From positions 1 through 27,264 of IMG/VR virus record IMGVR_UViG_2690316318_000023: DNA of 27,264 bases, one strand, 5' to 3'. Position numbers and translations under genes: made by a program. Source of the DNA: a virus (lineage: Duplodnaviria; Heunggongvirae; Uroviricota; Caudoviricetes). Below are positions 1 through 16,438 of this stretch, one piece after another (within the stretch, counting starts at the first letter, position 1; each line of letters starts with the position of its first letter). Below the pieces are notes generated by a model. It was not told where the DNA came from, searched no databases, and saw only the letters and a list, made by a program, of their open reading frames with translations.

Positions 1-282
1 CTACCTTTGCCTCTTGCCGCCATTTAACCGGAAGGCGTTACCGTTCGGTTGCGCTATCCCCATGCGGTGTTGCGTTTCGGTAACAGCTTTATGCAGGTCG
101 CCAAATTCCTCAACCTTCACGGGCGGGCGCTTCACGTTCTCCAGACACGTTTCACGGCGGCGCTTTATCCATTCCCGATCATCGTCCTCGGTGCATAACA
201 GCATGACTTCCATCCATCGTGCGGCAGCTCTCCGGTATAGCCCTTTTGACTCCAGCTCTTCAGCTTTCCTGTCCCTTATCAT
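1..282 (-). CDS. PerC-family-like small transcriptional activator (93 aa)
   Basis: Complete minus-strand ORF (ATG at 282, TAG at 3-1) with GAGAGG Shine-Dalgarno 5 nt upstream. Sequence (MIRDRKAEELESKGLYRRAA...) recalls PerC-type activators of enterobacterial islands; this is from memory and unverified. Confidence 0.5.
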   Translation of the reverse strand: MIRDRKAEELESKGLYRRAAARWMEVMLLCTEDDDREWIKRRRETCLENVKRPPVKVEEFGDLHKAVTETQHRMGIAQPNGNAFRLNGGKRQR

Positions 283-311
283 TTCTGCCTCTCAGATTAT
301 ATAGATAAGCA

Positions 312-357
312 AAAAGGTGTTGGTTCAGTTGGTTCAGTTGGTTCAATTTGTAAAGAG
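312..357. repeat. Left copy of a 46-bp perfect inverted repeat; contains tandem GGTTCAGTT/TTGGTTCA iterons (crr-like)
   Basis: Read directly: aaaaggtgttggttcagttggttcagttggttcaatttgtaaagag is the exact reverse complement of 7776-7821. Further GAACCAAC copies lie at about 391-420. Confidence 0.85.
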
Positions 358-769
358 CGTTGTTTTTATTGTGTTTTTTCTAAAATATTGAACCAACATC
401 AACTCATTTTGAACCAACAAAAAGTGTCCGTGAACTAACACTCTGTCAAATAGTCACTACATATATTAACGGTGAAGACTAAATCCGCCAGCAAATAGCT
501 TATATAGCACCGCTTTATGCCGCAGTTATGCTGGAACAGTAATCATTTCACAGAACCGCCTAACTACTATATGGCACCTGCTAAAAAGCACATCAGCCTA
601 GTCAGTTGATCGGTGCATGGATATCCTAACAATTCAACTATATAACGTGATCTCCCATGTCGATCTACTGTCATGCAATGATTAACAAACACATAGACAC
701 ATCTGCTTGGCGCATTGATTAATCACTGATCATCCATCAGGATATGCGAACCACCGTCACCAGGTTAGG

Positions 770-1855
770 ATGATTCTCAAAAGCCACCTGTATTCAATGC
801 CTTTGATGGGTTTCATCCATAGTTATTTTCTCGTGACTGACATGGAGATTTTGATTTCAAGGTGTGCAAAAACTATCGCAGAGTACAATGGAGCTCAAAT
901 GACTGTGGCACCAAAAGATCAAAGTTTGAAATCTGTAAGGGTGGGCTTTTACACAAGCTCTGAGAATATTCGCACTAGTAACAAGGGGTTAACCGCAGAG
1001 GCCTTTAAAAATCTGTATGATCGGTGTTCTAAAGACTTCAAGATGACCCACTATGCAGACTTTGGTGAAAGAGAACTTAAAATTCATTTTCTAGACATCT
1101 CACCCGAGGATGGCTCCTACTTCGGATTCATGTCTCGAAGAAGAAAAAGCGCAACACTGGCATATATTACAGATAAAGAGTGGGTGGAAGAGAAAATCCC
1201 TCTAGCCGGGGCAAAGACTCTTTCAGAACGTACATACTTTATTTATTATCCTCAGACAGACATTCTAGTATTGTCTTTAAATCATTTAGGTCCACGCCAT
1301 AGTGACTTAGCCTTCCTTCTTTTCAACTCCAGTGATCGCGGAGTCCCTGTTTCTTTTGAAGCCATTTGGAAAGAAGAAAGCATCAAAGAACTACTCGAAA
1401 CTGGATCCAATCTAAGAAGCTGCGAGATTTCTGTGGCCATCCCAAGAAACTTCAATGCCGCACAGTATCAACTCGATGGAATGTTCGCGAATCAGATGAT
1501 TGAGATGATCAGAGGCACCAGTTCAAGCCACCTGACTATTTCGTTACGCGGACATTCTCCATTAAAAAGAAAAGCAAAGGGATGGCTTGAGGATGACGTT
1601 AAAAAAAGCCTTAAGGAGATGCTAGAAAAGTTCCCTGGTGGTGATGGTCGTTTAACTTTTGAGAAAGCAAATGTTGTTGCTCAGGGCGATAAAAAGAAGA
1701 AAAGTCTTGTAGACGAAGTTCTTACGGTAAAGAAGATGGTGCCTATCCAAGCAGATGGGTATCCGACCGATACTGACGTTAAAAATGCTATGCTACAAGC
1801 AAAGAATGACAACCTTAGGTATCTAACCCAGTACTATTTGGTTAGTCAAACGTAA
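770..1855 (+). CDS. Hypothetical protein, large subunit of cargo module A (361 aa as drawn; true start may be ATG 899)
   Basis: Long ORF in visibly AT-rich DNA. The best Shine-Dalgarno (GGAG, 5-nt spacer) precedes the in-frame ATG at 899, so the N-terminus is uncertain. No catalytic motif recognisable by eye. The next gene follows 12 nt downstream. Confidence 0.6.
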   Translation: MILKSHLYSMPLMGFIHSYFLVTDMEILISRCAKTIAEYNGAQMTVAPKDQSLKSVRVGFYTSSENIRTSNKGLTAEAFKNLYDRCSKDFKMTHYADFGERELKIHFLDISPEDGSYFGFMSRRRKSATLAYITDKEWVEEKIPLAGAKTLSERTYFIYYPQTDILVLSLNHLGPRHSDLAFLLFNSSDRGVPVSFEAIWKEESIKELLETGSNLRSCEISVAIPRNFNAAQYQLDGMFANQMIEMIRGTSSSHLTISLRGHSPLKRKAKGWLEDDVKKSLKEMLEKFPGGDGRLTFEKANVVAQGDKKKKSLVDEVLTVKKMVPIQADGYPTDTDVKNAMLQAKNDNLRYLTQYYLVSQT

Positions 1856-1867
1856 CAGGAATACATT

Positions 1868-2305
1868 ATGAGTTCTCGGAAATTGTTTGCTGCCAAGTCA
1901 TTGTTTGCTCTAGCTATGGCTATTGCTGGTGCCCATTTTTTACACGACCTAGATCACAATGCTGTCATTTCGGCTGCTGGTGCTCTTTCAACTATTTCTG
2001 GAGTTCTCTTTGGTTTTGTTTTGGCATCAGTCACCATGCTAAGTAGCTTTGATAGTTCAAAGGGAATTGTAGGCGCTCTAAAAAGTAACGGAGTACTAAA
2101 AGGCATTATTGAGGGGCTTTTTGATACAGGAACTACGCTGATCACAGCCTGCCTATTAGCAATGATCTCGATGTTTGCCCCTGTTGTCAGCAATCTGCCT
2201 CTGGATTATTATGCCCTGCTACTCGCAGGGGCATATTTGATTATATCAATGATAACTTTTTTCTTTAACTGGAAATCTTTATCTAAAATAATAAGTTACA
2301 TATGA
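1868..2305 (+). CDS. Small four-helix integral membrane protein (145 aa), second gene of cargo module A
   Basis: ATG preceded by AGGA. Four hydrophobic helices are visible (LFALAMAIAGAHFL, ISGVLFGFVLASVTML, TLITACLLAMISMFAPVV, YYALLLAGAYLIISMITFFF). Same strand and AT-rich composition as 770-1855. Confidence 0.7.
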   Translation: MSSRKLFAAKSLFALAMAIAGAHFLHDLDHNAVISAAGALSTISGVLFGFVLASVTMLSSFDSSKGIVGALKSNGVLKGIIEGLFDTGTTLITACLLAMISMFAPVVSNLPLDYYALLLAGAYLIISMITFFFNWKSLSKIISYI

Positions 2306-3067
2306 TAAATATTTCAAAATGAGTCCCCCTGCTACGGATAGTCCTTGGCTTAAAAAATACCGTCACCGCTGAATACCCACACAGTGCCCCCACCCATTTA
2401 GTTGGCATAATGTATTCAACTGATTGAGGAATGGCTCCTCTTTTACTACCAAACGGCCATCGCTGGCGCATTCATCCGCTGGTAGTGGAACTTTTTAGCC
2501 ATCAGCGCCTCCCTAAATCAATTCCTTACATCGCTCAAATTCAACAACCATTGTTGTAATCTTGCTGCTATCAAGTAACGCCTTTGTATTACGCCGACTT
2601 TATCTTGCCAGCAACATACGCCATCCGATAATTTCGATGTTACGCGCGCATACTTGTCGCAAAATATCAGACAAAAGCCAGATTCAGAACGTCGTGATAA
2701 CCACCAGCACAACAGAGAGGTCATGTAACGCGATTTATCACATCAGATACATGTGATTGGTGTACCAGCATAAAACATCGTCATAGCGCGTCCTGTGCGC
2801 ATATACGCCGATAATCAACACATCACCACCACTCTGTCTCGTGTAGAGAACAGTTTCATGGTATCCCCCGCCATCGTGTGCGTACTGGTCGGACGCAGTT
2901 GCAAAAAATTTTGCAACTGATACCCCTCGCGCGCGTACTGGTCACGAAATTGGTGTTTTGCTGTGGCAGTGATATCAGAAAAATCTTCCTGTTTCACATA
3001 AAGCGGATATGCGCGTACTGTAACGGCCCCATCAACGGGGATCGGATTTGAAATCCCGACCCAAGCT

Positions 3068-3487
3068 ATGTACCAAATGCCATGTCTTGGATATATGATG
3101 ATTGCCATTCTAAACAAAGCTAAAGGGAGGGTTGGTGTGAATGCTCAGGCTGTCATCATGGTTTTCCTTGGTCTGATTGTCGCAAAACTATATCCAGACT
3201 GGTGGAAAGGGGCATTAGCAACTGTCGCCATCTATTTGCTTTTATCCGTCGTTAAGCGATCGTTCGTTAAGACCGTAAATCAAGCAAAACGTTTCTCATT
3301 TAAGAATTTAATAAACTATATTACTGGGCTTATTTTTTGCCTTTCAATTTTGATCGCCTCAGCTTTTTTGCCCGTATCAATAGCTAATTTTTTTGGCGCA
3401 CCATATGAGGTAGGTTATCTATTCTCTGTTTTTTGCCTTGTTCTTTCCCTTCTTTACCTATGGATGAGAGCAAAGAACAAAAATTAG
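3068..3487 (+). CDS. Small multi-pass membrane protein (139 aa as drawn; probable start GTG 3137, about 116 aa)
   Basis: GGGAGGG Shine-Dalgarno sits 6 nt before the in-frame GTG at 3137. Four hydrophobic segments. Convergent with the 701-aa gene. Confidence 0.55.
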   Translation: MYQMPCLGYMMIAILNKAKGRVGVNAQAVIMVFLGLIVAKLYPDWWKGALATVAIYLLLSVVKRSFVKTVNQAKRFSFKNLINYITGLIFCLSILIASAFLPVSIANFFGAPYEVGYLFSVFCLVLSLLYLWMRAKNKN

Positions 3488-3500
3488 CCATCCATGGCTA
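3485..3500. terminator. Short hairpin (TAGCCA-TCCA-TGGCTA) between convergent genes; T-run follows on the minus strand
   Basis: Palindrome read directly. Flanked by an A-run on plus (ATTTTTGTTC on the minus strand), consistent with termination of the minus-strand three-gene operon. The stem is short, so confidence is low. Confidence 0.3.
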
Positions 3501-3505
3501 ACCAG

Positions 3506-5611
3506 TTATTGAGCTTCTTTTTGTGATGCCTGTGCGACTCTGGTGAGCGATTGTGTGACCGTACTGATCGCTCTGTCATATGCTGTGCTACCTTTTGGCG
3601 TATTTGCCAGACGTAACAAGGCATTTCGTATAACAGGGCTTTCGTATGCCTTCGCTGCTCCGCCTACGGCACCAGCAGCAGGAACAACAAACGCAGCCGT
3701 TTTTAGCATCCCCGCTAATACTGCTGCGTTTATGATGCCACCACCAACTAACAATCCATAAAGCTGCTGACCATTTAAGTTTTGAACGTTCGCTTTTGCC
3801 GCGTGTCTTGTATCGTTGAGGTATTTAATAACGCCGTCCAGTTCCTTTCCATGTACGCCTTTAAAGAAAGTTGCTGATTGCTTCCTGTTCCGGTGTAACG
3901 CATTAATAAACTTCTCAACACTGATATTTCCAGACGGATCAGTCGCCTTATCTACAGCATTCTGAACTATGGCTGCTCGTGCGTTTTGCCTACCATTGTC
4001 ATCCAGAAGCCTGTAAAGCTGAGAACGTTCTGATGGGCTTTGGCTAAAAACGAGTTTTGTTACATCCTCAGGCGTGGCCTTGCCGCTGGCTATTGCCTTT
4101 TGAACGCGCGTTCTTCCCATCATGTCATTGAATTTAGACCATGAGCGATCAACCCTTGCCATATTAATGGCTTCGTCTGCTCCAAGATTTTTGGCTACGG
4201 CTTTTTTCATATCCGCCGTATATGCCTTGTAGATAATATCGCTGGCTTTCTGGAGCGTATCTTTATCAACAGTGTCAGATGACGCCATAAATCGCTTTCG
4301 AAGATCGGTTCTGTTTTCCCTCGCCAGACGCAGGTCATTTGGTCCGCTGGTGATATCGTCTTTAAATTGCTGCAAGACTTTTACCGCGGCTCTATCCTGA
4401 GATTTGCCCGGGCGGCTTAACACGGCAATCTGATTGTCGATAGCTTTTACCGTGTTTGAGAGATCGACAGGGGTATCCCCCATAGCGTCAATTATGCGGT
4501 TATATCGCTTTCCTGCTGCCTCAATGAATTTTTGTTGCCCTTTAGTCGCAGATTCATAAAGCTGTTTATCAGAAATGCCACCCAGACCATCGCTAAATGT
4601 TCTGACTAAATTTTCTCGTGCTTGTTGTTGATTCAGCCGATTCTTACCGGTTCCAAAAAAAGGAACTCTTTCGCCTAATGTCTGAGCCTGACTCTGCATA
4701 AAGGTTTTATCTTTCAGCATGTCACTGGTCATTAACGGCAGATTTCTTTCCGATGCAAAGTCGACAGCAGCCTTTGCTTCAGGCGACATATCACCACGAA
4801 CAGCCCTCGAAACCGCACTCGCTGTATTTTCCAGCCCCTTACCAATACCACCAATGCCAGCAGAAATTACCGTTTGTAACGGATCAATATCTTCTCCACC
4901 AGCAAGGCTGGTGGCTCCCTGTAGTGCTAAATCTGTAGCTGCTGATTTTCCTATGGCACCAAGCACCGTTCCAGCCCTGCCCGCTGGTGTAAACGCCAAC
5001 GCATTAGCAAGAAACGAGGTCAGGTCTTGCGGTGATAAACCCGGCTTGTTCAGGGCATAATCACCTGATGGCAGAGAAACGATAGTATTCCCCTTCTCAT
5101 CCTGCCTTAATGTCGCCCCCATTCCCTGAAGAATCTTTTCCTGAGACGCGTCAGAGCCGAAAAGTTGAGACCATCCAGCCTTTAGGGCATCCATGCTTAG
5201 TGAGTTCAATTCTGGGGCAGAGGCGACATTTTGCAGTCTCTCCATCTCTGGAGTCATTCGGCTTTCGCCTGTTATAGCATCGCGCATCGCAGCCCCAAGA
5301 CTGGCTCCCTGTTCTGCTGAACGCTCAAGCCCCTCTCTTTGCTGAGTAGCTAACTTTGCATACCCTGACGCAAGAGAATTATCAGATGATGTATGTTGAA
5401 TATTTTGAGTTGCTGATTGGGATCGGTCTATTTCATTCGTTGATGGTAGTGGATAGGCAGCATAAAAAGCCTGCTTAGCCTGCTCTACACTTTCTCCGGC
5501 TTGCGGGGCCACGACTTCATTGAAGTATTGCTCCTGAGCCTGCGCTTTTTGTTCTGGTGCTAACGCCTGATACTGTGGAGAGGCGATAACATCTTTCCAT
5601 GCTTTAGCCAT
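3506..5611 (-). CDS. Hypothetical protein (701 aa), distal gene of the three-gene cargo operon; Ala/Gln/Ser-rich with a C-terminal hydrophobic Gly/Ala-rich segment
   Basis: ATG at 5611-5609 overlaps the upstream stop (TAATG) and is preceded by GGGGTGA. No Walker A or nuclease motif seen by eye. C-terminal LLVGGGIINAAVLAGMLKTAAFVVPAAGAVGGAA looks membrane-associating. Confidence 0.8.
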   Translation of the reverse strand: MAKAWKDVIASPQYQALAPEQKAQAQEQYFNEVVAPQAGESVEQAKQAFYAAYPLPSTNEIDRSQSATQNIQHTSSDNSLASGYAKLATQQREGLERSAEQGASLGAAMRDAITGESRMTPEMERLQNVASAPELNSLSMDALKAGWSQLFGSDASQEKILQGMGATLRQDEKGNTIVSLPSGDYALNKPGLSPQDLTSFLANALAFTPAGRAGTVLGAIGKSAATDLALQGATSLAGGEDIDPLQTVISAGIGGIGKGLENTASAVSRAVRGDMSPEAKAAVDFASERNLPLMTSDMLKDKTFMQSQAQTLGERVPFFGTGKNRLNQQQARENLVRTFSDGLGGISDKQLYESATKGQQKFIEAAGKRYNRIIDAMGDTPVDLSNTVKAIDNQIAVLSRPGKSQDRAAVKVLQQFKDDITSGPNDLRLARENRTDLRKRFMASSDTVDKDTLQKASDIIYKAYTADMKKAVAKNLGADEAINMARVDRSWSKFNDMMGRTRVQKAIASGKATPEDVTKLVFSQSPSERSQLYRLLDDNGRQNARAAIVQNAVDKATDPSGNISVEKFINALHRNRKQSATFFKGVHGKELDGVIKYLNDTRHAAKANVQNLNGQQLYGLLVGGGIINAAVLAGMLKTAAFVVPAAGAVGGAAKAYESPVIRNALLRLANTPKGSTAYDRAISTVTQSLTRVAQASQKEAQ

Positions 5612-7077
5612 TAATCACCCCATAGTGAAGAAAAGTTACTGCTGGCTGCTGGCTGTGATACCTGCTCAGATTGCGGCAATGTCTGCGACGAAGAAGCAGT
5701 TCCTCTGTCAACTGCTGAAATAACCCGCAAAGCATCATAAGTTCGACCAGAAGCAGCTTTCAGCGAATTGAACTGGTTTTCCATCTTCCGGCGCTTGGTA
5801 TCAATGGTTTTTGTGGAATCACCAGGCTGAGGGAAATACATTTGATAATATTTGGACATTTCAGCTGGTAGGATAGATGCCCCTGTTTCCTGACGGAGTA
5901 TTGCCATTATTGCGTCATTAGCATTAACAACGTATTGCTGCTCTGCTGGGCTGAGCGTTAAGTTAGCCAGCGTCCCATTACCCAAAGCATTATTAATGAT
6001 CGCCACTCGCTGTGGGCTAAGCTGGTCTTTCAGTGTATCTATTGAATCAAGAGCATCCCTAACCCTGTATGCAAATCCAGCAGCTTTTTTAGCCCCTTCT
6101 GGCGACTTTTCCATGATCTTTTGGGCTGTTGGCAAAGCTATTGGACGAAACCCATCTCCAGATATTGGCTGGTTTAGTTTTCCCTGCTCTTCACTTCCGT
6201 CTGTGTAGTATTTTGTGACAGTGCCATCATCGTTTTCTCTAACACTCATTAATTTTTTGGCGTTTGTATTAATTCCAGCCGCTGCCGCAAATGCCGCCGC
6301 CCCCTCTGGATCCGCCTTTAACATTTGCGCGTACTGATTGTAATTCTGCATTGCTGCTGTTGGTGCATATGCTGACGTTAACGCATTTGCTCGGCTAATA
6401 TCCTGCCCTCTCGCCTGAAGTGCTTCGCCAGCCTGATTGCTGCGGATTGTCTCTGCCAACTTGCCACGCTCAATATCCCGACCTTCCATTTGATCTTTGA
6501 TATCGAAATACTTCTCATGACCGAGAGAAAACAGCGCCAGATTACCTGCGAAATGCTGGAAGCCCTGCGGGTCATTAACCTGCATTTCAGCAATAGTTTC
6601 TGGAGGGATACCTAAACGACGCATCTCCTGCTCATTATCCATCATGAACCTGCCAAATGCGCCCTGACCAAGCGATGAGGCTACCTGTGCTTTGAGCGCC
6701 AGATTGCCATAATCATCCCTTTGAGCATCATCGACATAACTCATCCCTTTACGGACTTCCTCAAACTCTTCTGGGAATGCTGTAATAAGATTACGCATCT
6801 GCTCCCTGTCACCGGACGCATAAGCATCTGCATAACCTTTCTGGAATGCCGCTTTACGCTCCTGCTGTTGCTGCTGCTTATAAATATCAGCAACGCCAGC
6901 CAGACCACGAAGACCTGTCAGAGCAACGTTATTTGCACCTGAGCGAGCCAGTTCATTGTTTTCGCGGATCAGACCAAGCGTTGCGTTAATGTCGCTTGCC
7001 TTTGGCGCATTCTCGTTTTGCGCACCAATGCCAGCCAGAAAACCACCAGAATTAATACCCTGTTGCCACGTAGCCAT
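5611..7077 (-). CDS. Hypothetical protein (about 488 aa from ATG 7077; ORF open to GTG 7089), middle gene of the three-gene cargo operon
   Basis: Long ORF, translationally coupled to the 701-aa gene. Gln/Ala-rich (QQQQQERKAAFQ), no recognisable enzymatic motif. Confidence 0.8.
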   Translation of the reverse strand: MATWQQGINSGGFLAGIGAQNENAPKASDINATLGLIRENNELARSGANNVALTGLRGLAGVADIYKQQQQQERKAAFQKGYADAYASGDREQMRNLITAFPEEFEEVRKGMSYVDDAQRDDYGNLALKAQVASSLGQGAFGRFMMDNEQEMRRLGIPPETIAEMQVNDPQGFQHFAGNLALFSLGHEKYFDIKDQMEGRDIERGKLAETIRSNQAGEALQARGQDISRANALTSAYAPTAAMQNYNQYAQMLKADPEGAAAFAAAAGINTNAKKLMSVRENDDGTVTKYYTDGSEEQGKLNQPISGDGFRPIALPTAQKIMEKSPEGAKKAAGFAYRVRDALDSIDTLKDQLSPQRVAIINNALGNGTLANLTLSPAEQQYVVNANDAIMAILRQETGASILPAEMSKYYQMYFPQPGDSTKTIDTKRRKMENQFNSLKAASGRTYDALRVISAVDRGTASSSQTLPQSEQVSQPAASSNFSSLWGD

Positions 7078-7081
7078 TGAT

Positions 7082-7255
7082 TTACCCACGTCCAGTTAAA
7101 GTGTAAGCCAGCGCCTTATCCATTAATCCCCGAGCAATTTCATGGATCGTTGGCGCAACTCCTACCTCTGATTTTTTACGCTGCTCCTCCTGAATTTTCT
7201 TTATCGCTTCCATTTGCTTCTCACTTATCAATACTGGCTTTACTGAAATAGCCAT
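7082..7255 (-). CDS. Small hypothetical protein (57 aa), first gene of the three-gene cargo operon; possible small DNA-binding or regulatory protein
   Basis: ATG at 7255 preceded by AAGGGGG (4-5 nt spacer); its stop lies 2 nt before the next gene's ATG. Translation: MAISVKPVLISEKQMEAIKKIQEEQRKKSEVGVAPTIHEIARGLMDKALAYTLTGRG. Confidence 0.5.
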   Translation of the reverse strand: MAISVKPVLISEKQMEAIKKIQEEQRKKSEVGVAPTIHEIARGLMDKALAYTLTGRG

Positions 7256-7288
7256 AACGCCCCCTTAGAACTGTATAAAACAACAGTC

Positions 7289-7294
7289 ATTATA
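7289..7294 (-). promoter_or_regulatory. Candidate -10 hexamer (TATAAT on the minus strand) for the three-gene cargo operon
   Basis: Perfect TATAAT about 35 nt upstream of the 57-aa ORF start. No good -35 at 17-bp spacing, so it may be activator-dependent. Confidence 0.3.
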
Positions 7295-7350
7295 GTTTCA
7301 TAAAACGCAACATTCATCATTGTGATTGCAAAATATGAAACAAATAGCAC

Positions 7351-7383
7351 AAAAAAATGCCACCGCTCAGTAGCTGGTGGCAT
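7351..7383 (-). terminator. Rho-independent terminator (minus strand) downstream of the primase/iteron region, insulating the cargo operon
   Basis: Hairpin ATGCCACC(GCTcagtAGC, T bulge)GGTGGCAT with 8+3 bp stem; on the minus strand it is followed by a 7-nt U-run (plus-strand A-run 7351-7357). Confidence 0.55.
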
Positions 7384-7577
7384 CGTTCTGTGTGTCAGGT
7401 TTTGACAGGTTTTTTATGGACTCTAAAAACTATATTTATGGTGTCGCATTACTCTTCACGGCAGGCGCTTTTCAGTTCTGCCCTTGCTTCTGGCTCCATT
7501 GGTAATTTGATTCGCGATCAGCTATGCGGATGGTTTGCTGAACAGGCATAACAACTTCTCAGGGGCTGTTTTCTGAA

Positions 7578-7653
7578 CTACGAAAATTTCGTAGTGCTCA
7601 CTTTCAAAAACGTCACGCCCTTGTACACAGGATTTTACGAAAGTCTCGTAAAA
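7578..7653. promoter_or_regulatory. Two related palindromes (CTACGAAA-a-TTTCGTAG at 7578-7594; TTTTACGA-agtc-TCGTAAAA at 7634-7653), operator-like
   Basis: Both read directly; they share a TACGA/TCGTA inverted core. Located between the ori-like iterons and the terminator. Confidence 0.3.
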
Positions 7654-7689
7654 CACTCTCTGATGCCAGCCAGGTGTTGTGCGCATCAA

Positions 7690-7821
7690 TTCAGTCACAT
7701 TGTGTTGGTTCAAAATACCGTGTTGTTGGTTCGGTGTTGGTTCAATAAAAAGAATAAAATCCTTACAAAACAATACTCTTTACAAATTGAACCAACTGAA
7801 CCAACTGAACCAACACCTTTT
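7690..7821. repeat. Iteron array immediately downstream of the primase gene (ori-like); includes the right copy of the 46-bp perfect inverted repeat (7776-7821)
   Basis: Multiple TTGGTTCA/GAACCAAC copies. 7776-7821 (ctctttacaaattgaaccaactgaaccaactgaaccaacacctttt) is the exact reverse complement of 312-357. Confidence 0.8.
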
Positions 7822-7839: not shown

Positions 7840-10596
7840 TCATTCTTCGGATGAGTTATAATCTCCTGGCTGGTAATTGAGTACATAAACGTTTATTTGT
7901 CGTCCCTGAATACGTGGTGATTTTCTTTGGTATCCACGACCGCTGTTTGGTGGGGTTAGCATCCCGGCTTTTTTCAACACTTCAGCAAACTGTTTTGCGT
8001 TGAAACCACATGCGATCTCCTTTTCAAATGTGGCCGGGAATGTGTAGAAAATCATTGGGCTTTCGTCATGTTCTCCACGCTGACGGTATCCGGCTAAATC
8101 TTTGATGGGCAAATCTGCCGGGCTGTATGGAAATGGTGCAAAACGGCTAAGCCCATAGGCATTAAGAAATGCCTCCGTTTGTTCAATAATCTGCTGATGC
8201 TCTTTGTTACCTGTGCCGAACTCGCGCAACCATGCGTTATAGCTGTGCTGTATCGCATCACGGCATGTCTGAGCATCCCAGCCTGTTACAACCTCGCCTA
8301 ACAGCAATGCGGCCTCCAGAATGGCAAATCGCGCGGCTACACGGTGAACCTGCTCACCATAATCGGATGGGATCAGGCTTCTCCATCTGCTTTCGCAGTC
8401 ACGAACAGTTTTAATAGCCTGTTGCTGGTGGTCTGCCAGCCATTTAATCCACTCACGCCCGGCTGCGCCGTGGTGATGCTGGTAAGCGTCTTTCAGTGCG
8501 TCTGCGTGCTGTTTTCCGTTCTGGTAATCGTGAAAGCGTACTGCTTTACTCAACGGAATATTCAGCAGTCGCACCAGTTGCCCGGCTTTGGTTTTTCGCC
8601 CGGAAGTAGCGATAAATGTTTCTAAATCCATTTCTCCGGTGCTGATTGCCACTGTACGCCAGCGTTTTAGATCCCGGTTTCCACCATCTTTAGCGCCTTG
8701 CAGTTTCCCTACACCGTTAAATAACGCATAGGCAGACTGTGAAACACTGACAGGATCAGCGCCCTGACCAACTTCATCAAGCGGCATTAATCCGTCATTG
8801 TGGGCGGCGGCTTCATTTGCCAGCCCCAGCGCGGTTCCGTACCACGTCAGCCGCAGTAAATCAGGGTTGCCGTATAAGCTGCTCGCCACGTTTGCCGTGG
8901 TGGTCTTACCTGCGCTCGACTGCTCATAGAAATGAATACCGAACCCGTCAGCACCCACCAGCCCAATCAATGGCGCTGCCAGTGCTGCGCCGATCCCGGT
9001 CATCATTGAATAGTTACCAAAGGCCAGACGCGCCACGTTATCACGCCAGCTTTTCGCGCTCCCTGAGACGGTATATCCGGCTGCGGCTGAGCTTCTCCCG
9101 CTGAACAGCACAGGATTTTCAGGTGTTCCGATGATTTCCCCATCAGACATGATGTACGCTCCGCATTGCCAGCCAGTGGCATGAGCAACACGCCACAATT
9201 CACGAGAGCCACTGCGTTGTAGCCAGTCTGCCAGTATTGCTCTGAGGCTGCTTTTGGTCGTGACATTTACCCCACCAGCTTTAAGTGTGCGCCATCCTTC
9301 ACGTTCACCAATATCAGCCAGTGGAATGGCAGCGGTTGTCGGCGTTTCAGAACCAAACGACAGCCAGCGAAGAATGAGATACTGGTCTTTATCGTCTCTG
9401 CCAGTACCGATAACGCTTAAAGGAGAACATAACCAGCTTTCGTTATTGATGATTTCTCCACTCTGGCTGTCAGCTCTCGGAGATACCCAATAAATACCAT
9501 CCTCGCGGCTTTCTATTCTTGGTTTCAGTGGGTCGGTATCCATAACCTTAAAATCGCTTCCCTCAATGGTCTGTGGCTCCTGTTTCACGCCATTACCCTG
9601 TGGTTGGTACATTGACTTATTGAACGCTTCTGTGGCGCATTTAATGCCGTGTTTTTGGTGGTAATCATTCCAGTCTGCTTTGTGATCTGTCGGGGGTAAT
9701 GCCACCCATCCAGAAACAGATAAAGCTGCTTTTTCTGCTGCTATTCTCCCCGTGTTTTGTCTTCCTTCGCTGTGGTCGTTATCCGCAGCAATGATGATTT
9801 GTGCTGAAGGAAATTTATCCCGCAGTACCTGGGCGACATATAACAGGTTCCCGGCATCAATCGCCGCCACTGTCAGCGCTTCTGAACGAATTAAATGGGC
9901 AGATAATGCCGTTGCCAGCCCTTCTGCGATTAAGATGCTCTGTGTTGTTTCTGGTGCGTTTATGGCGTGATATGCCCCTCGCTTTGCTGAACCTGTCAGG
10001 AGTCTTTTTTCACCATGTGAGGTAATAGTCTGTGCTGCTGTGACTGCGCCGGATTTATCCACCAGCGCCAGCAACAGAGATCCATCGGGCAACACGGGGA
10101 ATGTAAAATCACCTACCCCTTTCGCAACCAGATAATCAGATTTGCCGTTTACAGCCTTTCTGCGCATGTCATCAAACTGACGGGAAAACGTATCCCGTCT
10201 TTGTTGTTCGTCCTTCTCTGCCCTTTTCAGGCGCTCCTGTTCGCGTCGCTGGCGCTCGGTTTCCAGTTGTTCCCGTTTCTGGCTGGTGGCTTCTGGTGTT
10301 TCCGTTGTCCGGTAATCAATACCCAGAACATCAGCGGCAAGAAGCGCCGCCTCTGTTGTGTCGCAGTTATTTACGCGTTTAATTAAATCCAGCCCATCAC
10401 CAGCGCCGCACTGATTACAGATGAAGCTACCGCGCCCGTTGTCATCGAACCGGAATCGATCTTTGCCCCCACATGCAGGGCAGGGAGCATGACGGCGCGG
10501 AGAGTCAGGGACATTTATGTTCAGGCAGCCCAGCACATGAGGCCAGTTGTTTTCAGACGCACTGATAACCTGACGGATAAGATCAATGTTTCGCAT
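7840..10596 (-). CDS. P4 alpha-like DNA primase/helicase (918 aa): N-terminal zinc-ribbon, TOPRIM, C-terminal P-loop NTPase
   Basis: CPACGG...CNQCG zinc-binding motif near the N-terminus; TOPRIM-like IIIAADNDHSEG; P-loop-like SSAGKTT. ATG preceded by GGGGG Shine-Dalgarno. Confidence 0.9.
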   Translation of the reverse strand: MRNIDLIRQVISASENNWPHVLGCLNINVPDSPRRHAPCPACGGKDRFRFDDNGRGSFICNQCGAGDGLDLIKRVNNCDTTEAALLAADVLGIDYRTTETPEATSQKREQLETERQRREQERLKRAEKDEQQRRDTFSRQFDDMRRKAVNGKSDYLVAKGVGDFTFPVLPDGSLLLALVDKSGAVTAAQTITSHGEKRLLTGSAKRGAYHAINAPETTQSILIAEGLATALSAHLIRSEALTVAAIDAGNLLYVAQVLRDKFPSAQIIIAADNDHSEGRQNTGRIAAEKAALSVSGWVALPPTDHKADWNDYHQKHGIKCATEAFNKSMYQPQGNGVKQEPQTIEGSDFKVMDTDPLKPRIESREDGIYWVSPRADSQSGEIINNESWLCSPLSVIGTGRDDKDQYLILRWLSFGSETPTTAAIPLADIGEREGWRTLKAGGVNVTTKSSLRAILADWLQRSGSRELWRVAHATGWQCGAYIMSDGEIIGTPENPVLFSGRSSAAAGYTVSGSAKSWRDNVARLAFGNYSMMTGIGAALAAPLIGLVGADGFGIHFYEQSSAGKTTTANVASSLYGNPDLLRLTWYGTALGLANEAAAHNDGLMPLDEVGQGADPVSVSQSAYALFNGVGKLQGAKDGGNRDLKRWRTVAISTGEMDLETFIATSGRKTKAGQLVRLLNIPLSKAVRFHDYQNGKQHADALKDAYQHHHGAAGREWIKWLADHQQQAIKTVRDCESRWRSLIPSDYGEQVHRVAARFAILEAALLLGEVVTGWDAQTCRDAIQHSYNAWLREFGTGNKEHQQIIEQTEAFLNAYGLSRFAPFPYSPADLPIKDLAGYRQRGEHDESPMIFYTFPATFEKEIACGFNAKQFAEVLKKAGMLTPPNSGRGYQRKSPRIQGRQINVYVLNYQPGDYNSSEE

Positions 10597-11211: not shown

Positions 11212-11425
11212 GTTTCGCCTCGCCTGAATGATTCTGTAACTCATATTTGCCCAACAATTCGTCCGCTTCCTGAATAGCTTCTGGTACGCCATTGAGCAGT
11301 GACATAACCGCGCCAATCATTAACTTGTCTCTGTTGCTGGGGCTGGCCCCTTCAAGCCAGAACCCTAAAACAGTCTGAACCTGTTCGATGCGACATTGCG
11401 CTTCAATGAGCTGGATGTTGGTCAT
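11204..11425 (-). CDS. Small hypothetical protein (73 aa)
   Basis: ATG preceded by GGAGAG; overlaps neighbours in operon fashion. Confidence 0.55.
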   Translation of the reverse strand: MTNIQLIEAQCRIEQVQTVLGFWLEGASPSNRDKLMIGAVMSLLNGVPEAIQEADELLGKYELQNHSGEAKHE

Positions 11426-11685
11426 TTCGCACTCTCCACATCGATTAAACTGATATCTATCAGGGAGGTAACTTTTTGTAGCCAGCTATTGATTACTGTC
11501 GCCTGTTCCCCTCCCACCGAGGGAACAATCTCATTCATCACATGAACCAGACCTGTGCGCGCTCTGGTAAGCCGTTCAGTCGCGCAATCTGCGAGAGTGA
11601 ATGTGTCTGGATATGGCTCTTCTCTCCCCAGCAATGATTCAATTTCCAGCTCACACGGATGACGATAAATTAAGTTGATATTCAT
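11422..11685 (-). CDS. Small hypothetical protein (87 aa)
   Basis: ATG preceded by GGGGG; start overlaps the upstream stop (ATGA). Confidence 0.55.
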   Translation of the reverse strand: MNINLIYRHPCELEIESLLGREEPYPDTFTLADCATERLTRARTGLVHVMNEIVPSVGGEQATVINSWLQKVTSLIDISLIDVESAK

Positions 11686-11876
11686 TTTTCACCCCCAAGA
11701 ATTACCAGCTCTGCACGGGCATCGTTAACCAAAGATGAGCACGCTTTAATCGCATCCACGACATCAGCAGCGTCCATTTCTTCAGCCGAAAGACTGACAG
11801 CAACCAGGACAGCCGCTACTTGCTCAATTAATTGAAGTGCTGACGTAAGGCGAGGGGTATTAATTGAGTTATTCAT
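11682..11876 (-). CDS. Small hypothetical protein (64 aa from ATG 11876)
   Basis: GGGGG Shine-Dalgarno 6 nt before the ATG at 11876. The track ORF extends to 11933 but has no ribosome-binding site there. Confidence 0.45.
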   Translation of the reverse strand: MNNSINTPRLTSALQLIEQVAAVLVAVSLSAEEMDAADVVDAIKACSSLVNDARAELVILGGEK

Positions 11877-12936
11877 TGGTTGCCCCCGTTTTTCCTGGCA
11901 TTTGTCCACCTTCCAGCAGGAAATGAACGTCACGAACGGCGAGATCCAATATCGCGAGTAACGCCTTCAGCCTTTCGTCTCGTGAGGGAGAGTTGCTCAC
12001 CAGAATGTCGTTAATCACTTCTGTCAGTGTGATGATCTGGCTTGTGCGTTCGAGGGGATCCATATGCACATCGTAGGTTTTAATCATGTGCCACCTCCAT
12101 GCGGATACGACCAGCAAAAAAGCAGACGTGATCGCGCACCAGAGAACGGCGAGCATCGCGTTCAGACTCGGCAGCAATATGATGAATTTTGGCGGTAATT
12201 GTCGGGCAATCGCGGCGAACTGCGGCGATAATCCAGATAAATTGCGGTTTTTGGGTAGGGGTAGTAGCCAGCATGTGGCAGCCTCCTTCAGATAGCAGGT
12301 TACGCTACCACCGGAAACGCCAATTTCGCTGGTGGTAGCCCAGACAGGGTTGGCGTAACCGGCTCTGAAGGATACCGGCGCTTCCGAAGAAGCCCCCGCC
12401 TGAGCCACCATTGATTGACAAAGGCGCTGGATTATACACCAACGCCCAAAAAATGGGTGAGTCAGACCTACGACATAAAAAAAGACGCTCGGCGCGTCAT
12501 ATGTCGCCTTCAGAATTTTCAGGACGCCAATCCCGGCACCCGTTTTATGAGGTGCCTTATAACCATAAACCGTGTTGCCGCATAACGGCAAGCTCTTTTT
12601 TATGGACTCCGAAAACTCAGTATTGGAAGCACCAGATGCACAATACATCGCGCTCATTTCGTTAACGTCGCGCGTATGGACGAAGGTTTTTGTGGAGTCA
12701 CTACGCGAGCAGAGAAAGCCATCTACGACCAGAAATTCTCTGGCGCAGCCGCTGACCTTCTCAACGCTAACACCATCGACCGTAATTTCTGACATAGTTA
12801 AGGCATCCGCTCCTACCACCAGAAAATGATAAACTTTGCTTGTATCTGCTGTATTAATGCCAGACTTTGCTGTCATATTGCTGGATTTTGGTGACATACC
12901 AGCCAGTGAAAATATCTTCTTCTGGACGGTTAGCAT
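11869..12936 (-). CDS. ORF of uncertain structure (355 codons open); N-terminal part looks like a real protein, C-terminal part overlaps alternative small genes
   Basis: ATG at 12936 has a GGAGG Shine-Dalgarno. The frame is open to 11869, but strong GGAGG-ATG sites also occur at 12274 (other frame, 64 aa) and 12087 (same frame, 72 aa), so the real gene boundaries are unclear. Confidence 0.35.
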
Positions 12937-13112
12937 TTGTTAACCTCCGCGAACTCCTTCATGAAGCGCGCCAGCGGTTGTACGCATGGCGATTGATACC
13001 CGTCGCGATAAAACGTCACTCGGTTGTGAGACACGCTTTCGACAGTAACGAGTGCTCCGTGGGCATCTTTGTAGCGTTTTTGAGGTTGTGGTGTTCCTGT
13101 TGGCTTAGACAT
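12930..13112 (-). CDS. Small hypothetical protein (about 60 aa from ATG 13112)
   Basis: GGAGG Shine-Dalgarno 6 nt upstream of ATG 13112, which overlaps the end of the upstream gene. Confidence 0.45.
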   Translation of the reverse strand: MSKPTGTPQPQKRYKDAHGALVTVESVSHNRVTFYRDGYQSPCVQPLARFMKEFAEVNKC

Positions 13113-13938
13113 TGACCGCCTCCAGACGCTTGGCGAGCCAGCGTTGCGACAGGCGGGTGAGTTCTCCTTTGCGCTGCTCATATTCCATGCCCATATCAAT
13201 TAACGTGATATTGGTGCTTTCGAGATATGAGAGGTGCTCAAGCTGTTCTGCGTTCATATGGTCGCGAGGTTCGCCAGAATAGCCATTTATCCGCGCCCAC
13301 TGCTTAGCAGTTAGCCCACCAAGAACGATACGAGAAATCATATTGCTCTCGTTTGTGTAGTGGTGTTGCTGCGTCGTTTTCCCCTGCTCGGCACGGGCCA
13401 TATTCAGCGCATCGCACATTGGCTTAAAGTTGTTTGCGGCACTGATACGGGCTTTTAGCTGGCGACGATAGCGGGCGGCGATTTCAGGCACGCTACGCTG
13501 TAATTCTTCCTCGCACTGGATGAAATAACGGCGGATAGCGCGACCCTGATCATTGCGTTCGATCATTGCCAGTTCTTTCGCCATTCCGACACTTAACAGA
13601 TAGTCTTTGCCGGGTCTGCCAGACTGCTTAATCTTGCTGTAAGCCGCGCCATTCGGGCTTTTCCCCAAATTTGGGGAAATTGTTTTATGGACTGAGTAAT
13701 CGTGCCCAATGGTGAAGTCATATTCAGAGATGCGATCAGTGATCCATGTAGAGAAGTCTTTTCCCACGCCCAACGCTTTGTGTAACGCTTTTGCGCTAAC
13801 AATATTGGTTTCACGCCCACCGATATGACCAGGAATAACCGGGACAATTGCGGCAAATTCATTACCGTTAATTGTGCTCAGAGAGGCGTTCAGATGAGGG
13901 GCGGCCTCAGAAATTAATCTGCTTTTTTCGATGTTCAT
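13105..13938 (-). CDS. Phage antirepressor-like protein (277 aa)
   Basis: GGAGA Shine-Dalgarno. The N-terminal region (DYLLSVGMAKELAMIERNDQGRAIRRYFIQCEEEL) resembles the antirepressor/Rha-type N-terminal domain of phage regulatory proteins; recalled, unverified. Confidence 0.7.
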   Translation of the reverse strand: MNIEKSRLISEAAPHLNASLSTINGNEFAAIVPVIPGHIGGRETNIVSAKALHKALGVGKDFSTWITDRISEYDFTIGHDYSVHKTISPNLGKSPNGAAYSKIKQSGRPGKDYLLSVGMAKELAMIERNDQGRAIRRYFIQCEEELQRSVPEIAARYRRQLKARISAANNFKPMCDALNMARAEQGKTTQQHHYTNESNMISRIVLGGLTAKQWARINGYSGEPRDHMNAEQLEHLSYLESTNITLIDMGMEYEQRKGELTRLSQRWLAKRLEAVNV

Positions 13939-13950
13939 TTTCAGTCTCCG

Positions 13951-14382
13951 TTAAGCGGCGTTAAACGCGTCCGGGTAGAGTTTCAGAATGTCGGCAATTT
14001 CCTGCTGAGAAAGTCCGTTGTGATCATTTATGTTCGCAAGATGGTTAATATGAGTGATCACTTTCAGAACATCACCACGGCAGGAGAAACGGTAGCGAAG
14101 GTGTGTTCCGATACCATCAGGATTCTTTTCGTCGATACGCTCCAGAGTGATTCCAAGCTGGCGTTCTAACTCTGTTGCATAGTTACGACCAGAAGACAGA
14201 CGGCAGTAGCGAAGAATGTCGTTTTCTGTCCATCCCTCTATACCAGTACGCAGCATATAGACTCGGGCACGATGCTTTTTCGGTGTGCGCTTTGGTGCTT
14301 GAAGGGATTTTGTAAGGGGCGTAATATCAGATACGCGAATATCTGAATTAGCCGCCTGTAATGGGCGGTTTTTCTTTTCCAT
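13951..14382 (-). CDS. Hypothetical protein (143 aa), basic N-terminus
   Basis: ATG overlaps the alpA stop (ATGA); no recognisable domain. Confidence 0.65.
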   Translation of the reverse strand: MEKKNRPLQAANSDIRVSDITPLTKSLQAPKRTPKKHRARVYMLRTGIEGWTENDILRYCRLSSGRNYATELERQLGITLERIDEKNPDGIGTHLRYRFSCRGDVLKVITHINHLANINDHNGLSQQEIADILKLYPDAFNAA

Positions 14383-14585
14383 CAGGCCACCTCGTCTCTA
14401 GATTCTAATATACACTTCTCAATCCATTCATCTATTTCAGACTCAACAAAAGCAATAGCCCGACTTCCAATTTTTACCTGTTTAGGGAACCTCCCCTGAC
14501 TAATAAGACGATAAATCCATGCTTTGCTATAACCAGTTCGCCTTTGAACTTCAGAGAGACGAATTAATGAATTGTAATTAGCCAT
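14382..14585 (-). CDS. alpA: AlpA-family phage regulatory protein / excisionase-like HTH (67 aa)
   Basis: Size, position next to int, and the motif ...RLSEVQRRTGYSKAWIYRLISQGRFPKQVKIGSRAIAFVESEIDEWI are typical of AlpA-type regulators. Confidence 0.85.
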   Translation of the reverse strand: MANYNSLIRLSEVQRRTGYSKAWIYRLISQGRFPKQVKIGSRAIAFVESEIDEWIEKCILESRDEVA

Positions 14586-15012: not shown

Positions 15013-16227
15013 TCATGCGTGTTTTTCAAACACCATATGCACCACATTTCCGCCATGCTCGAGAGAATCCATATAGTCGGCATACCATTGAAGCATCTCC
15101 CGCCTTCCATCCAGATATTGCGCATGGTTGTATGTGCCACGAATTGAGTTCTTATCAACGTGAGCGAGCTGCGTTTCTATCCACGCGGTGTTATAGCCCT
15201 GCTCATGCAAAATCGTACTCATAGTGTGCCGGAACCCATGACCAGTTACACGTCCAGCGTAGCCAATGCGCTTAAACACTTGGTTTATGCTGGCCTCACT
15301 CATTGTTTTCCTTGGATCATTGCGCCCGGGAAACATAAGAGGGTAATTGCCTGTTATTTCTCTAATCTTCCCAATAAGCGAAAGAGCCTGCTCAGACAAT
15401 GGCACAATATGAGGCCGCCGCATTTTCATACGTGAAGCGGGTATCTCCCAGAGAGCCTTGTTGAAATCAATTTCATCCCATAATGCGCCACGTAGTTCGC
15501 CAGTCCGCAAGCCTGTGATAATCAGTAGACGAGCCGCCATAACAACCAATGCGCTTCCTGAGTAACTGGACAATGCCTTGAAAAAATCAGGTAATTCTTT
15601 GGCTGTAAGGAAAGGGTAATGATTAGATTCATGGCCTTGCATCGCGCTAGTAAGGTCTGGTGCAGGGTTATACTCTGCGCGACCAGTGACTATTGCATAG
15701 CGGAAAACTTCCCCGCACCGCTGCCTCACTTTTTTGGCTTTTTCTGTAGCACCGCGCCCCTCGATGCGCCGCAGCACATTCAGAAGTTCAAGTGGTTTGA
15801 TTTCGGCGATTGGTTTTTTGCCAATGTAAGGGAACACATCTTTGTTGAAGGCTTCGAGGATGTCTGAAGCATAACCAGCAGACCATTTTTTTAATTTGCT
15901 GCTGTGCCACTCAAGGGCAATATCTTTGAAGGTGTTGTTTAACTGCGTTTCCCGGGCAATCTTTTCCTCTCGTTTCGCTTCCATCGGATCGATACCACCA
16001 GCGATACCTCTTTTCGCATCTTCACGTTTTGCCCGAGCATCGGCTAGAGTAACCTCAGGATACACACCTAGTGCCAATAGCTTCTCTTTACCAGCTACAC
16101 GATATTTAAGTCGCCAGTATTTACCTCCATTAGGTTTTACCAAGAGATACAAACCGCCACCATCGGCCAGCTTGTAAGCCTTCTCTTTTGGCTTGGCTGT
16201 GTCTATTTGACGGGCATTGAGTTTCAC
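15013..16227 (-). CDS. int: P4-type tyrosine site-specific integrase (404 aa)
   Basis: N-terminus MKLNARQIDTAKPKEKAYKLADGGGLYLLVKPNGGKYWRLKYR and C-terminal HGFRHT...LAH...Y catalytic region. GTG start with GGAGG upstream. Adjacent to the tRNA fragment. Confidence 0.95.
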   Translation of the reverse strand: MKLNARQIDTAKPKEKAYKLADGGGLYLLVKPNGGKYWRLKYRVAGKEKLLALGVYPEVTLADARAKREDAKRGIAGGIDPMEAKREEKIARETQLNNTFKDIALEWHSSKLKKWSAGYASDILEAFNKDVFPYIGKKPIAEIKPLELLNVLRRIEGRGATEKAKKVRQRCGEVFRYAIVTGRAEYNPAPDLTSAMQGHESNHYPFLTAKELPDFFKALSSYSGSALVVMAARLLIITGLRTGELRGALWDEIDFNKALWEIPASRMKMRRPHIVPLSEQALSLIGKIREITGNYPLMFPGRNDPRKTMSEASINQVFKRIGYAGRVTGHGFRHTMSTILHEQGYNTAWIETQLAHVDKNSIRGTYNHAQYLDGRREMLQWYADYMDSLEHGGNVVHMVFEKHA

Positions 16228-16392: not shown

Positions 16393-16438
16393 TGGTGCCG
16401 ATAATAGGAGTCGAACCTACGACCTTCGCATTACGAAT
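16393..16438 (-). pseudogene. tRNA-Thr 3' fragment (46 nt: anticodon loop through CCA end), att-core repeat beside the integrase; not an intact tRNA
   Basis: The minus strand reads ...TTCGTAATGCGAAGGTCGTAGGTTCGACTCCTATTATCGGCACCA (T-loop GGTTCGACTCC, acceptor stem, CCA), matching my recollection of E. coli thrW. The upstream sequence cannot form the 5' acceptor/D arm. Confidence 0.6.

Follow-up and report, generated by a model that had tools for sequence, protein, structure and literature searches.

Why should a mobile element carry a long and perfect inverted repeat around a block of its genes? The question is raised by a stretch of 27,264 nucleotides (the window), positions 1 to 27,264 of the IMG/VR virus record IMGVR_UViG_2690316318_000023 (Caudoviricetes), in which one sequence beside a PerC-family regulator gene and another beside a primase-helicase gene are exact reverse complements with some 7.4 kb of DNA between them. 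The initial annotation took the pair for iteron arrays resembling the origin (ori) and cis-replication region (crr) of satellite P4. Dissection of the two loci and comparison with their relatives leave us certain, on anatomy and conservation, that a phage-inducible chromosomal island (PICI) has two paralogous origin modules here, placed as mirror images of each other, and that each arm is the outer end of one of them. The module beside the primase gene, here called P, would be the origin of the element, while the module beside the PerC gene, D, may be a second site of initiator assembly which assists or duplicates P and is coupled to an outward promoter, a functional reading to which we give about even chances.

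The arms of the repeat are parts of two mirror-oriented iteron modules

The longest exact stretch of the repeat is 46 nt, with 312-357 reverse-complementary to 7776-7821, just as initially annotated, and a repeat finder extended the arms to 312-366 and 7767-7821 (55 nt, 96% complementary) and detected a second, inner pair at 390-426 and 7696-7732 (37 nt, 81% complementary). By our own estimate about 1e-19 exact inverted repeats of 46 nt would be expected per 27 kb of random sequence. Exact copies of the 9-bp iteron GTTGGTTCA number ten in the window, all of them within the D and P loci, compared to 0.28 expected, and none of 100 shuffled sequences reached ten.

Both loci follow one plan over about 115 bp, namely three iterons with a 9-bp period, a 43-bp AT-rich spacer and three phased iterons facing the opposite way, and D (319-439) and P (7704-7814) mirror each other with their tight triples on the outer sides. 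In D the triple, three copies of GTTGGTTCA (319-345, plus strand), lies on the side of PerC, whose start codon at 282 is 36 bp beyond the array; the spacer (346-388, 79% A+T) opens with a box specific to D, ATTTGTAAAGA; and the inner iterons (389-439, minus strand, opposite to the triple), spaced 21+21 bp, are TGAACCAAC at 389 and 410 and TGAACTAAC, with one mismatch, at 431. In P the triple, three copies of TGAACCAAC (7788-7814, minus strand), lies near the stop codon of the primase gene (7840-7842), with 25 bp between the two; the spacer (7745-7787, 81% A+T) is the presumed unwinding region; and the inner iterons (7704-7744, plus strand) are GTTGGTTCA at 7704, GTTGGTTCG, with one mismatch, at 7725 and GTTGGTTCA at 7736, which gives spacings of 11+21 bp outward from the triple (21 then 11 on the plus strand). 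The inner flank of P (7655-7703) includes a CCAGCCAGG box (7664-7674), which, as read by eye, also appears in a relative, L005, with a compact origin (see below). The initial annotation was right that the arrays abut the end of the primase gene and the PerC gene and that degenerate copies lie nearby, these being the six inner iterons, inverted relative to the triples; its description of tandem iterons also stands, but each locus is a complete origin-type module and not a plain array.

An EcCIMP1-type island of the Gram-negative PICI family

The minus strand of the window carries genes for an integrase (15013-16227), AlpA (14382-14585, PF05930), an AntA antirepressor, an Ash-family protein and the primase-helicase, Pri-Rep (7840-10596), so that integrase, AlpA and Pri-Rep are co-oriented, as in the PICI backbone. 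A partial tRNA-Thr copy at 16393-16436, an attachment site (att) scar, ends the PICI, and a complete relative measures 16.3 kb between 12-bp att repeats. Gram-negative PICI origins consist of two iteron sets around an AT-rich region, 3' of pri (Fillol-Salom et al. 2018, PMC6092414), and P has this arrangement in this position. Beyond D, the PerC-family gene (1-282, minus strand; PF06069, E = 3.7e-30) encodes WP_000617443.1, the same protein as in EcCIMP1, where the gene is named EcCIMP1_025 (PMC11773190). EcCIMP1 is an island of E. coli MP1 that is excised and transferred by the helper phage Kapi1 (PMC11773190). With it the window element shares its family, the thrW/proA site, PerC, the DUF927 primase, DNA-transfer genes past the primase and both modules, while the EcCIMP1 cargo differs in detail (DUF2824, transglycosylase, alpA_1); the EcCIMP1 modules (locus L071) are 8.4 kb apart and form an exact inverted repeat of 48 nt.

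About 360 complete E. coli genomes have this primase. Of the near-full-length E. coli records, 38 were sampled across the ranking; each of them had two or more places that matched, as would be expected of a second repeat copy, and the presence of P and D was confirmed directly in five loci (L001-L004 and L071).

Membership of the P4 group fails on the protein, as there is no full-length alpha primase-helicase and residues 7-361 of Pri-Rep alone align, and sid, delta and psu were found neither among the Pfam and PHROG matches of the window nor in the RefSeq annotation of five relatives. The element is thus a Gram-negative PICI of the EcCIMP1 type and not a P4-like satellite.

A primase-helicase fusion and its cognate iterons

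Pri-Rep (918 amino acids, minus strand) comprises, by Pfam, homology and fold, a Zn-ribbon, a TOPRIM primase, a DUF927 helicase and a C-terminal winged-helix-like domain (about residues 815-918). Residues 7-361 are 33% identical to the P4 alpha primase domain (E = 1e-41), the remaining two thirds being unrelated to alpha, and residues 403-813 match Rep of the Staphylococcus aureus pathogenicity island (SaPI) SaPIbov1 (8tch_A, E = 1.1e-10, phmmer) and also Cch of the staphylococcal cassette chromosome mec (SCCmec). For a model of the last 200 amino acids (predicted local distance difference test score 83.8) the best Foldseek matches were again 8tch_A (E = 7.7e-5) and Cch (5dgk, E = 3e-4), with weaker fold matches to winged-helix DNA binders. 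By sequence and fold together the helicase is MCM-like, akin to SaPI Rep and Cch, and ends in a DNA-binding part, and the protein is a fusion of this helicase with a P4-alpha-like primase.

Primase relatives were found at 63 loci when species-representative genomes were scanned; iterons start 26-99 bp past the end of the primase match in about 45 relatives, and do so in essentially all of the informative loci. Seven iteron types occur among these relatives, each paired with a distinct C-terminal primase segment of about 25 residues: RKSPRIxGRQINVYV goes with TGAACCAAC, GRVREDGRQIRVYV with TGAGACAAC and WQIRTPRLKHLNNARPW with TTATCCCA, and the window Pri-Rep has the segment GRGYQRKSPRIQGRQINVYV alongside its TGAACCAAC iterons. 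A Citrobacter relative with a TTATCCCA-type primase has TTATCCCA/TTGTCCCA iterons at both P and D, in the same geometry and 7.8 kb apart. From this co-variation, and from position and homology, we infer that Pri-Rep binds the iterons of both D and P, and that it would do so through its C-terminal winged-helix-like domain; the earlier proposal that both arrays are cognate to the element's own primase-helicase is borne out to this extent. The pairing amounts to a simple code between a segment of about 25 residues in the initiator and a 9-bp iteron, and if the segment does read the iterons, exchanging RKSPRIQGRQINV for GRVREDGRQIRV might shift the specificity to TGAGACAAC.

Conservation and history of the distal module

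Across seven genera the D iterons are 0.91-1.0 identical and keep their phasing, compared to 0.43-0.57 for the gaps between them, and the tight triple has a mean pairwise identity of 0.96. The spacer is 43 bp long in 19 of 22 modules despite its drifting sequence, and the box ATTTGTAAAGA, which like the 21+21 inner spacing is a conserved feature of D, is conserved at 0.95 in D and at 0.50 in P. Iteron conservation, the fixed spacer and the matched specificity indicate that selection has acted on D as an origin-like module bound by protein.

Between genera, the likeness of D to D (and of P to P) exceeds that of D to the P of the same element. By this grouping the duplication is old, and a recent duplication of the module was ruled out; D is an old paralogue of P, the two lineages being distinct across at least seven genera. 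The 46-nt identity seen in the window is made up of the 27-bp triple and short flanks, which are matched between P and D only in Escherichia and, largely, in Cedecea, and in several genera the two modules have little in common past the triple. Short patches of conversion between P and D were seen in E. coli, where the P of L003 has a D-type patch and the D of MP1 a P-type patch; the P of MP1 also has D-like 21+21 inner spacing. Functional constraint or recent gene conversion had been offered as the cause of the perfect identity, and both are seen, the latter as short patches, but the duplication itself is ancient.

Compact and split origins among the relatives

The iterons of the relatives come in two architectures. 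In the compact form (24 loci, the validated origin of EcCICFT073 among them, and E. coli ET479) a single field of 170-315 bp, most often 220-300 bp, consists in order of a tight triple, an AT-rich spacer, five iterons, one inverted iteron, a GC-rich spacer and an inverted tight triple; the inverted triples are 190-230 bp apart, and the distal one abuts the next gene. In the split form (11 genome loci and all of the E. coli elements) P of 111 bp and D of 121 bp lie 0.6-8.8 kb apart, and D mirrors P in every locus; the genera include Lonsdalea, Rosenbergiella, Chimaeribacter, Cedecea, Serratia, Enterobacter, Leclercia, Citrobacter and others. When viral contigs were scanned for the exact triple both forms recurred, three contigs having P and D 7.6-10.5 kb apart and always inverted. 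A compact bipartite PICI origin would, on the reading that we favour, have been split by the late and accessory block which now lies between the modules.

Some relatives depart from these plans. The tight array is enlarged from three to six or seven or more tandem 9-bp iterons in L050 (3988-4050) and in the viral contigs L085, L086, L111 and L120. Yersinia pekkanenii (L032) has the entire iteron field in triplicate, as direct copies within 6 kb (8154-8421, 12736-13003 and 13917-14214); the primase match is stretched to 3.8 kb there and a protein from a Y. pekkanenii contig of equal length is annotated as an HNH endonuclease, possibly reflecting an insertion that brought an origin copy with it. 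Two islands with compact origins, L005 (~13882-13915) and L069 (7189-7205), have a GC-rich box, GCCGCGCCATTACTGG, just ahead of their distal tight repeats, and, as the primases and iterons of these two are unrelated, it is perhaps a host-factor site.

A promoter-like box outside D

A -10-like box, TATCTATATAAT (296-307, minus strand), lies 11 nt outside the D triple. Among 20 loci drawn from both architectures, 16 have an exact hexamer of the TATATA/TATAAT type 11-19 nt outside the distal triple and three of the remaining four have a close variant, and about half of the 20 have the start of a co-oriented open reading frame (ORF) at a distance of 36-117 nt from the triple. These features suggest that a promoter points outward here, with the D triple lying over its -35 region. 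Promoter and terminator scans gave no sigma-70 promoter at either module and so it is from the conserved box and the ORF spacing that the idea is drawn. Occupancy of the D triple by Pri-Rep would be tied to downstream expression, here that of PerC, which may link the state of the initiator to the expression of PerC-family virulence regulators.

Replicon exchange and the possible role of D

Approximately 120 E. coli records match the primase query in its N-terminal part only, and the two that were examined (L129 and L130) differ in integration and cargo background. In both, the helicase and origin-binding domain (OBD) half of the protein has been replaced, along with P, by a DUF5906 replicon with GGTAYAGGT iterons, and in one of them the first 215 residues are identical to the window Pri-Rep before the switch to the DUF5906 helicase. 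That the helicase/OBD half and P are swapped together marks them as one exchangeable cassette and supports P as the cognate origin; lying directly 3' of the gene, P would serve as the canonical origin and be inherited with the helicase/DNA-binding half. Both siblings keep an orphan D beside PerC with six perfect TGAACCAAC iterons. The GGTAYAGGT iterons themselves come after the new gene and are divided into two clusters, separated by about 1 kb that holds two small genes (10248-10343 and 11352-11454 in L129; 9248-9343 and 10352-10454 in L130), and so a split iteron region recurs in a second initiator family.

In the reading that we favour D would act with P, either as an auxiliary cis site or as a second origin. 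A more particular version is that of a bipartite replicon in which D is a second functional origin, or a looping partner of P via Pri-Rep on the pattern of P4 crr or R6K, and in which occupancy also switches the PerC-side promoter; this we put forward tentatively, as a possibility well short of even. Several observations weigh against a role of D in replication and promoter control. The orphan D, which is not cognate to the new replicon, persists in two DUF5906 backgrounds, and the other N-terminal-only records show the same match pattern; D segregates with PerC and the cargo, not with the initiator, and is not obligatory for every carrier. Its persistence weakens a strict dependence of the ori/crr type, and, as the swapped recombinants look recent, the fact that the orphan D has not decayed says little. 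In nine relatives only P was found in the 10 kb examined, D being either absent or further away, and searches for att repeats in these loci gave no convincing attR inside that 10 kb. A simple sigma-70 scan, as mentioned, calls no promoter at D, and the published pri-ori assay (see below) used a compact origin, which cannot separate the half that is needed.

D may instead be a locus of negative control, a titration site and operator which handcuffs or sequesters Pri-Rep, represses the outward promoter and limits copy number before induction. Iterons that handcuff or sequester the initiator are found in incA of P1 and incC of F, and control layouts with two arrays are established for iteron plasmids. 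The D triple overlaps the -35 position of the conserved -10-like box, D stays beside PerC when the replicon is swapped, and the distal half of the compact origins has a spacer that is rich in GC and does not melt, so that a distal set need not unwind. For titration, though, the fixed 43-bp AT-rich spacer and the three phased inner iterons would be superfluous, yet they are kept across genera, and the operator would belong to a promoter that the scan did not call. We consider this explanation rather unlikely.

Slightly less probable again is that D is a relic with no part of its own in replication, the far half of a compact origin which was interrupted by the late and accessory block and has been kept for the downstream promoter and as an anchor of homology for the exchange of cargo. 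Among the E. coli elements homology breaks at ~419/420, the inner edge of D, toward the variable cargo, and the boundary of the exchangeable replication cassette is at ~7654/7655, the inner edge of P, where homology to the DUF5906-type L129 appears to end (as read by eye, unaligned). This locates the sites at which late and accessory genes are swapped, and recombination is active there, as the patches exchanged by P and D through conversion make plain. The orphan D of the DUF5906-type siblings and remnant islands that keep D with PerC also fit a relic. Conservation is confined to the iterons, their phasing and the spacer length, however, and does not cover the whole stretch, and in the TTATCCCA lineage D keeps to the iteron type that goes with the primase of the element; a passive anchor would lead one to expect neither. 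Of the remnants, the one D-only O111 match that was examined, L128 (E. coli O111 RM9322, 11228-13865), is a decayed island with D, PerC and neighbours which has lost the primase side and has IS1203 copies a few kb away; as a remnant it is uninformative.

The initial annotation had further suggested that the repeats could mediate inversion or deletion of the cargo. A recombination switch might act by inverting the 7.4-kb segment, or by flipping a fork so that double rolling-circle replication yields concatemers for headful packaging. Fork flipping of this kind gives double rolling-circle replication in the yeast 2-micron plasmid; the 46-55 bp of near-perfect inverted homology would suit it, as would the EcCIMP1 helper Kapi1, a P22-like phage with headful packaging. 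Replication by flipping should leave both isomers after transfer, but among 637 E. coli genomes that have the sequences none matched a synthetic inverted junction at ≥80% coverage, and several genera have little identity between P and D outside the 27-bp triple, which makes a switch very improbable. Deletion also finds no support, given that inverted repeats do not delete and that a synthetic cargo-less, single-module junction was present in no genome. That the repeats are terminal inverted repeats of a cargo transposon, which the initial annotation had named as the finding that would overturn it, has only the geometry of inverted repeats around a gene block in its favour and is refuted, to near certainty, by the lack of a transposase among the cargo ORFs (358-7775), by outer 8 bp that differ (GATAAGCA versus CTACGCAC) with no target-site duplication, by iterons matched to the adjacent primase and by compact relatives with the same inverted triples.

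Genes between and beyond the modules

The initial annotation asked whether the arrays are conserved while the cargo between them varies, and this is what is seen in the relatives. Just inside D the window has a variable accessory block (770-3487, plus strand; ORFs 770-1855, 1868-2305 and 3068-3487, with matches to phrog_7651 and phrog_8552), the ORFs of which had no matches in PADLOC or NCBIfam. In relatives the block holds Abi-family or other genes (L002 11994-13887, L003 6955-9887 and L130 1-2535), and it resembles a hotspot for accessory or defence genes. Next, on the minus strand, come P22-type genes for ejection and DNA transfer, one gp16-like (3506-5611) and one gp20-like (5611-7089), with matches to PF16928 (E = 1.3e-83), phrog_770 and phrog_917. 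They are essentially confined to Escherichia, with one weak partial match elsewhere (L048) and a copy at 12598-17766 in L071, which suggests that they are captured helper genes. The first gene after P, an ORF of 57 amino acids (7082-7255, minus strand), is found by tblastn at 46-76% identity in many genera; it had no family match in Pfam or PHROG, and it bears no similarity to the small ORF that precedes the capsid gene of EcCICFT073.

The distance from D to attR is 0.8-2.9 kb, a space occupied by PerC and, in relatives, by one or two more genes. The repeats thus bracket the late and accessory block and not, as first thought, the entire cargo, given that PerC and the extra genes lie beyond D.

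At the other end of the element, beyond the att scar (16440-27264), there are GNAT and HTH-cupin genes, then a low-GC GGDEF/MASE4 gene (19167-20528), an IS009 RNA match (20911-21109) and lambdoid tail genes (Tfa, tail fibre, Lom and J; 20868-27261), from which it appears that the PICI adjoins other mobile DNA.

Comparison with known replicons

A plasmid can be made to replicate by the pri-ori segment of EcCICFT073 (PMC6092414). In that island the CTGTCTACC iterons all belong to a single compact origin field (7010-7237), the inverted arms of which are 190 bp apart. EcCICFT073 resembles the window element in origin design, in its inverted outer tight repeats and in its backbone of int, alpA, pri and PerC, and differs in having one field of about 230 bp and an unrelated primase where the window element has two full modules 7.4 kb apart. 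SaPIbov1 Rep and SCCmec Cch are kin of Pri-Rep in the helicase and C-terminal part, and the SaPI origin also has iterons around an AT-rich stretch by rep; unlike these proteins, Pri-Rep has in addition the N-terminal P4-alpha-like Zn-ribbon/TOPRIM primase. We know of no second distant module in the SaPIs.

In the GenBank annotation of P4, crr (4291-4590), the alpha gene (4636-6969) and ori (9086-9809) are marked, and both sites have type 1 repeats of 8 bp. The likeness to the window element lies in two iteron sites that are kb apart (4.5 kb in P4), one of them at the 3' end of the primase gene, in the homologous primase domain and in a C4/isrK immunity-RNA homologue. The iterons differ, the P4 type 1 repeat being TGTTCACC, and the helicase and origin-binding part of the protein is unrelated. 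The two P4 sites also differ from each other in structure, crr consisting of two direct 120-bp repeats, and have the alpha operon between them, whereas the modules in the window are mirror-alike; and crr is needed in cis, whereas D can be orphaned in sibling elements. Of the ori/crr comparison made at the outset, then, the two-site layout with the same, cognate iterons and the primase domain hold good, while the element is a PICI with an unrelated helicase, and the orphan D speaks against a strict need in cis. The RNA homologues are C4 antisense RNA (12328-12415, 79.9 bits) and isrK (12478-12555, 67.8 bits; both Rfam, minus strand), which lie inside the Ash-family ORF in what is the P4 CI/seqA-type arrangement of immunity RNAs, here in a PICI.

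Separate iteron clusters that serve one initiator are found in plasmids such as R6K (gamma with alpha and beta), P1 (incC and incA) and F (incB and incC), where distant arrays activate or restrain initiation by looping or handcuffing and iterons overlap a promoter. These plasmids have iterons of 19-22 bp in direct arrays with the rep gene between the arrays; the window element has 9-bp iterons, mirrored modules that each have an AT-rich spacer, and an initiator of the helicase type.

As far as a term search of its main text goes, the EcCIMP1 paper does not mention iterons, and matches to 'ori' there appear to be 'origin' or 'original' (PMC11773190). Searching the literature with the iteron sequence returned unrelated papers only, and the split mirrored layout, its breadth over genera and the pairing of iterons with C-termini were not found in the literature searched. 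The origin type and the element are already published, and the split mirrored layout was not found described.

Implications for PICI replication

The origins of PICIs and SaPIs have been described as single sites by rep, and a second, distant module would redraw the limits of the replicon. If D does prove to be a second origin or a looping partner of P, the more tentative version above, there would be a mode of dual-origin replication, by mirrored modules that flank exchangeable genes, which is conserved in satellites across the Enterobacterales. EcCIMP1 with its helper Kapi1 would offer a tractable system in which to study whether distant iterons work together in the manner of P4 and R6K or hold replication back in that of P1 and F.

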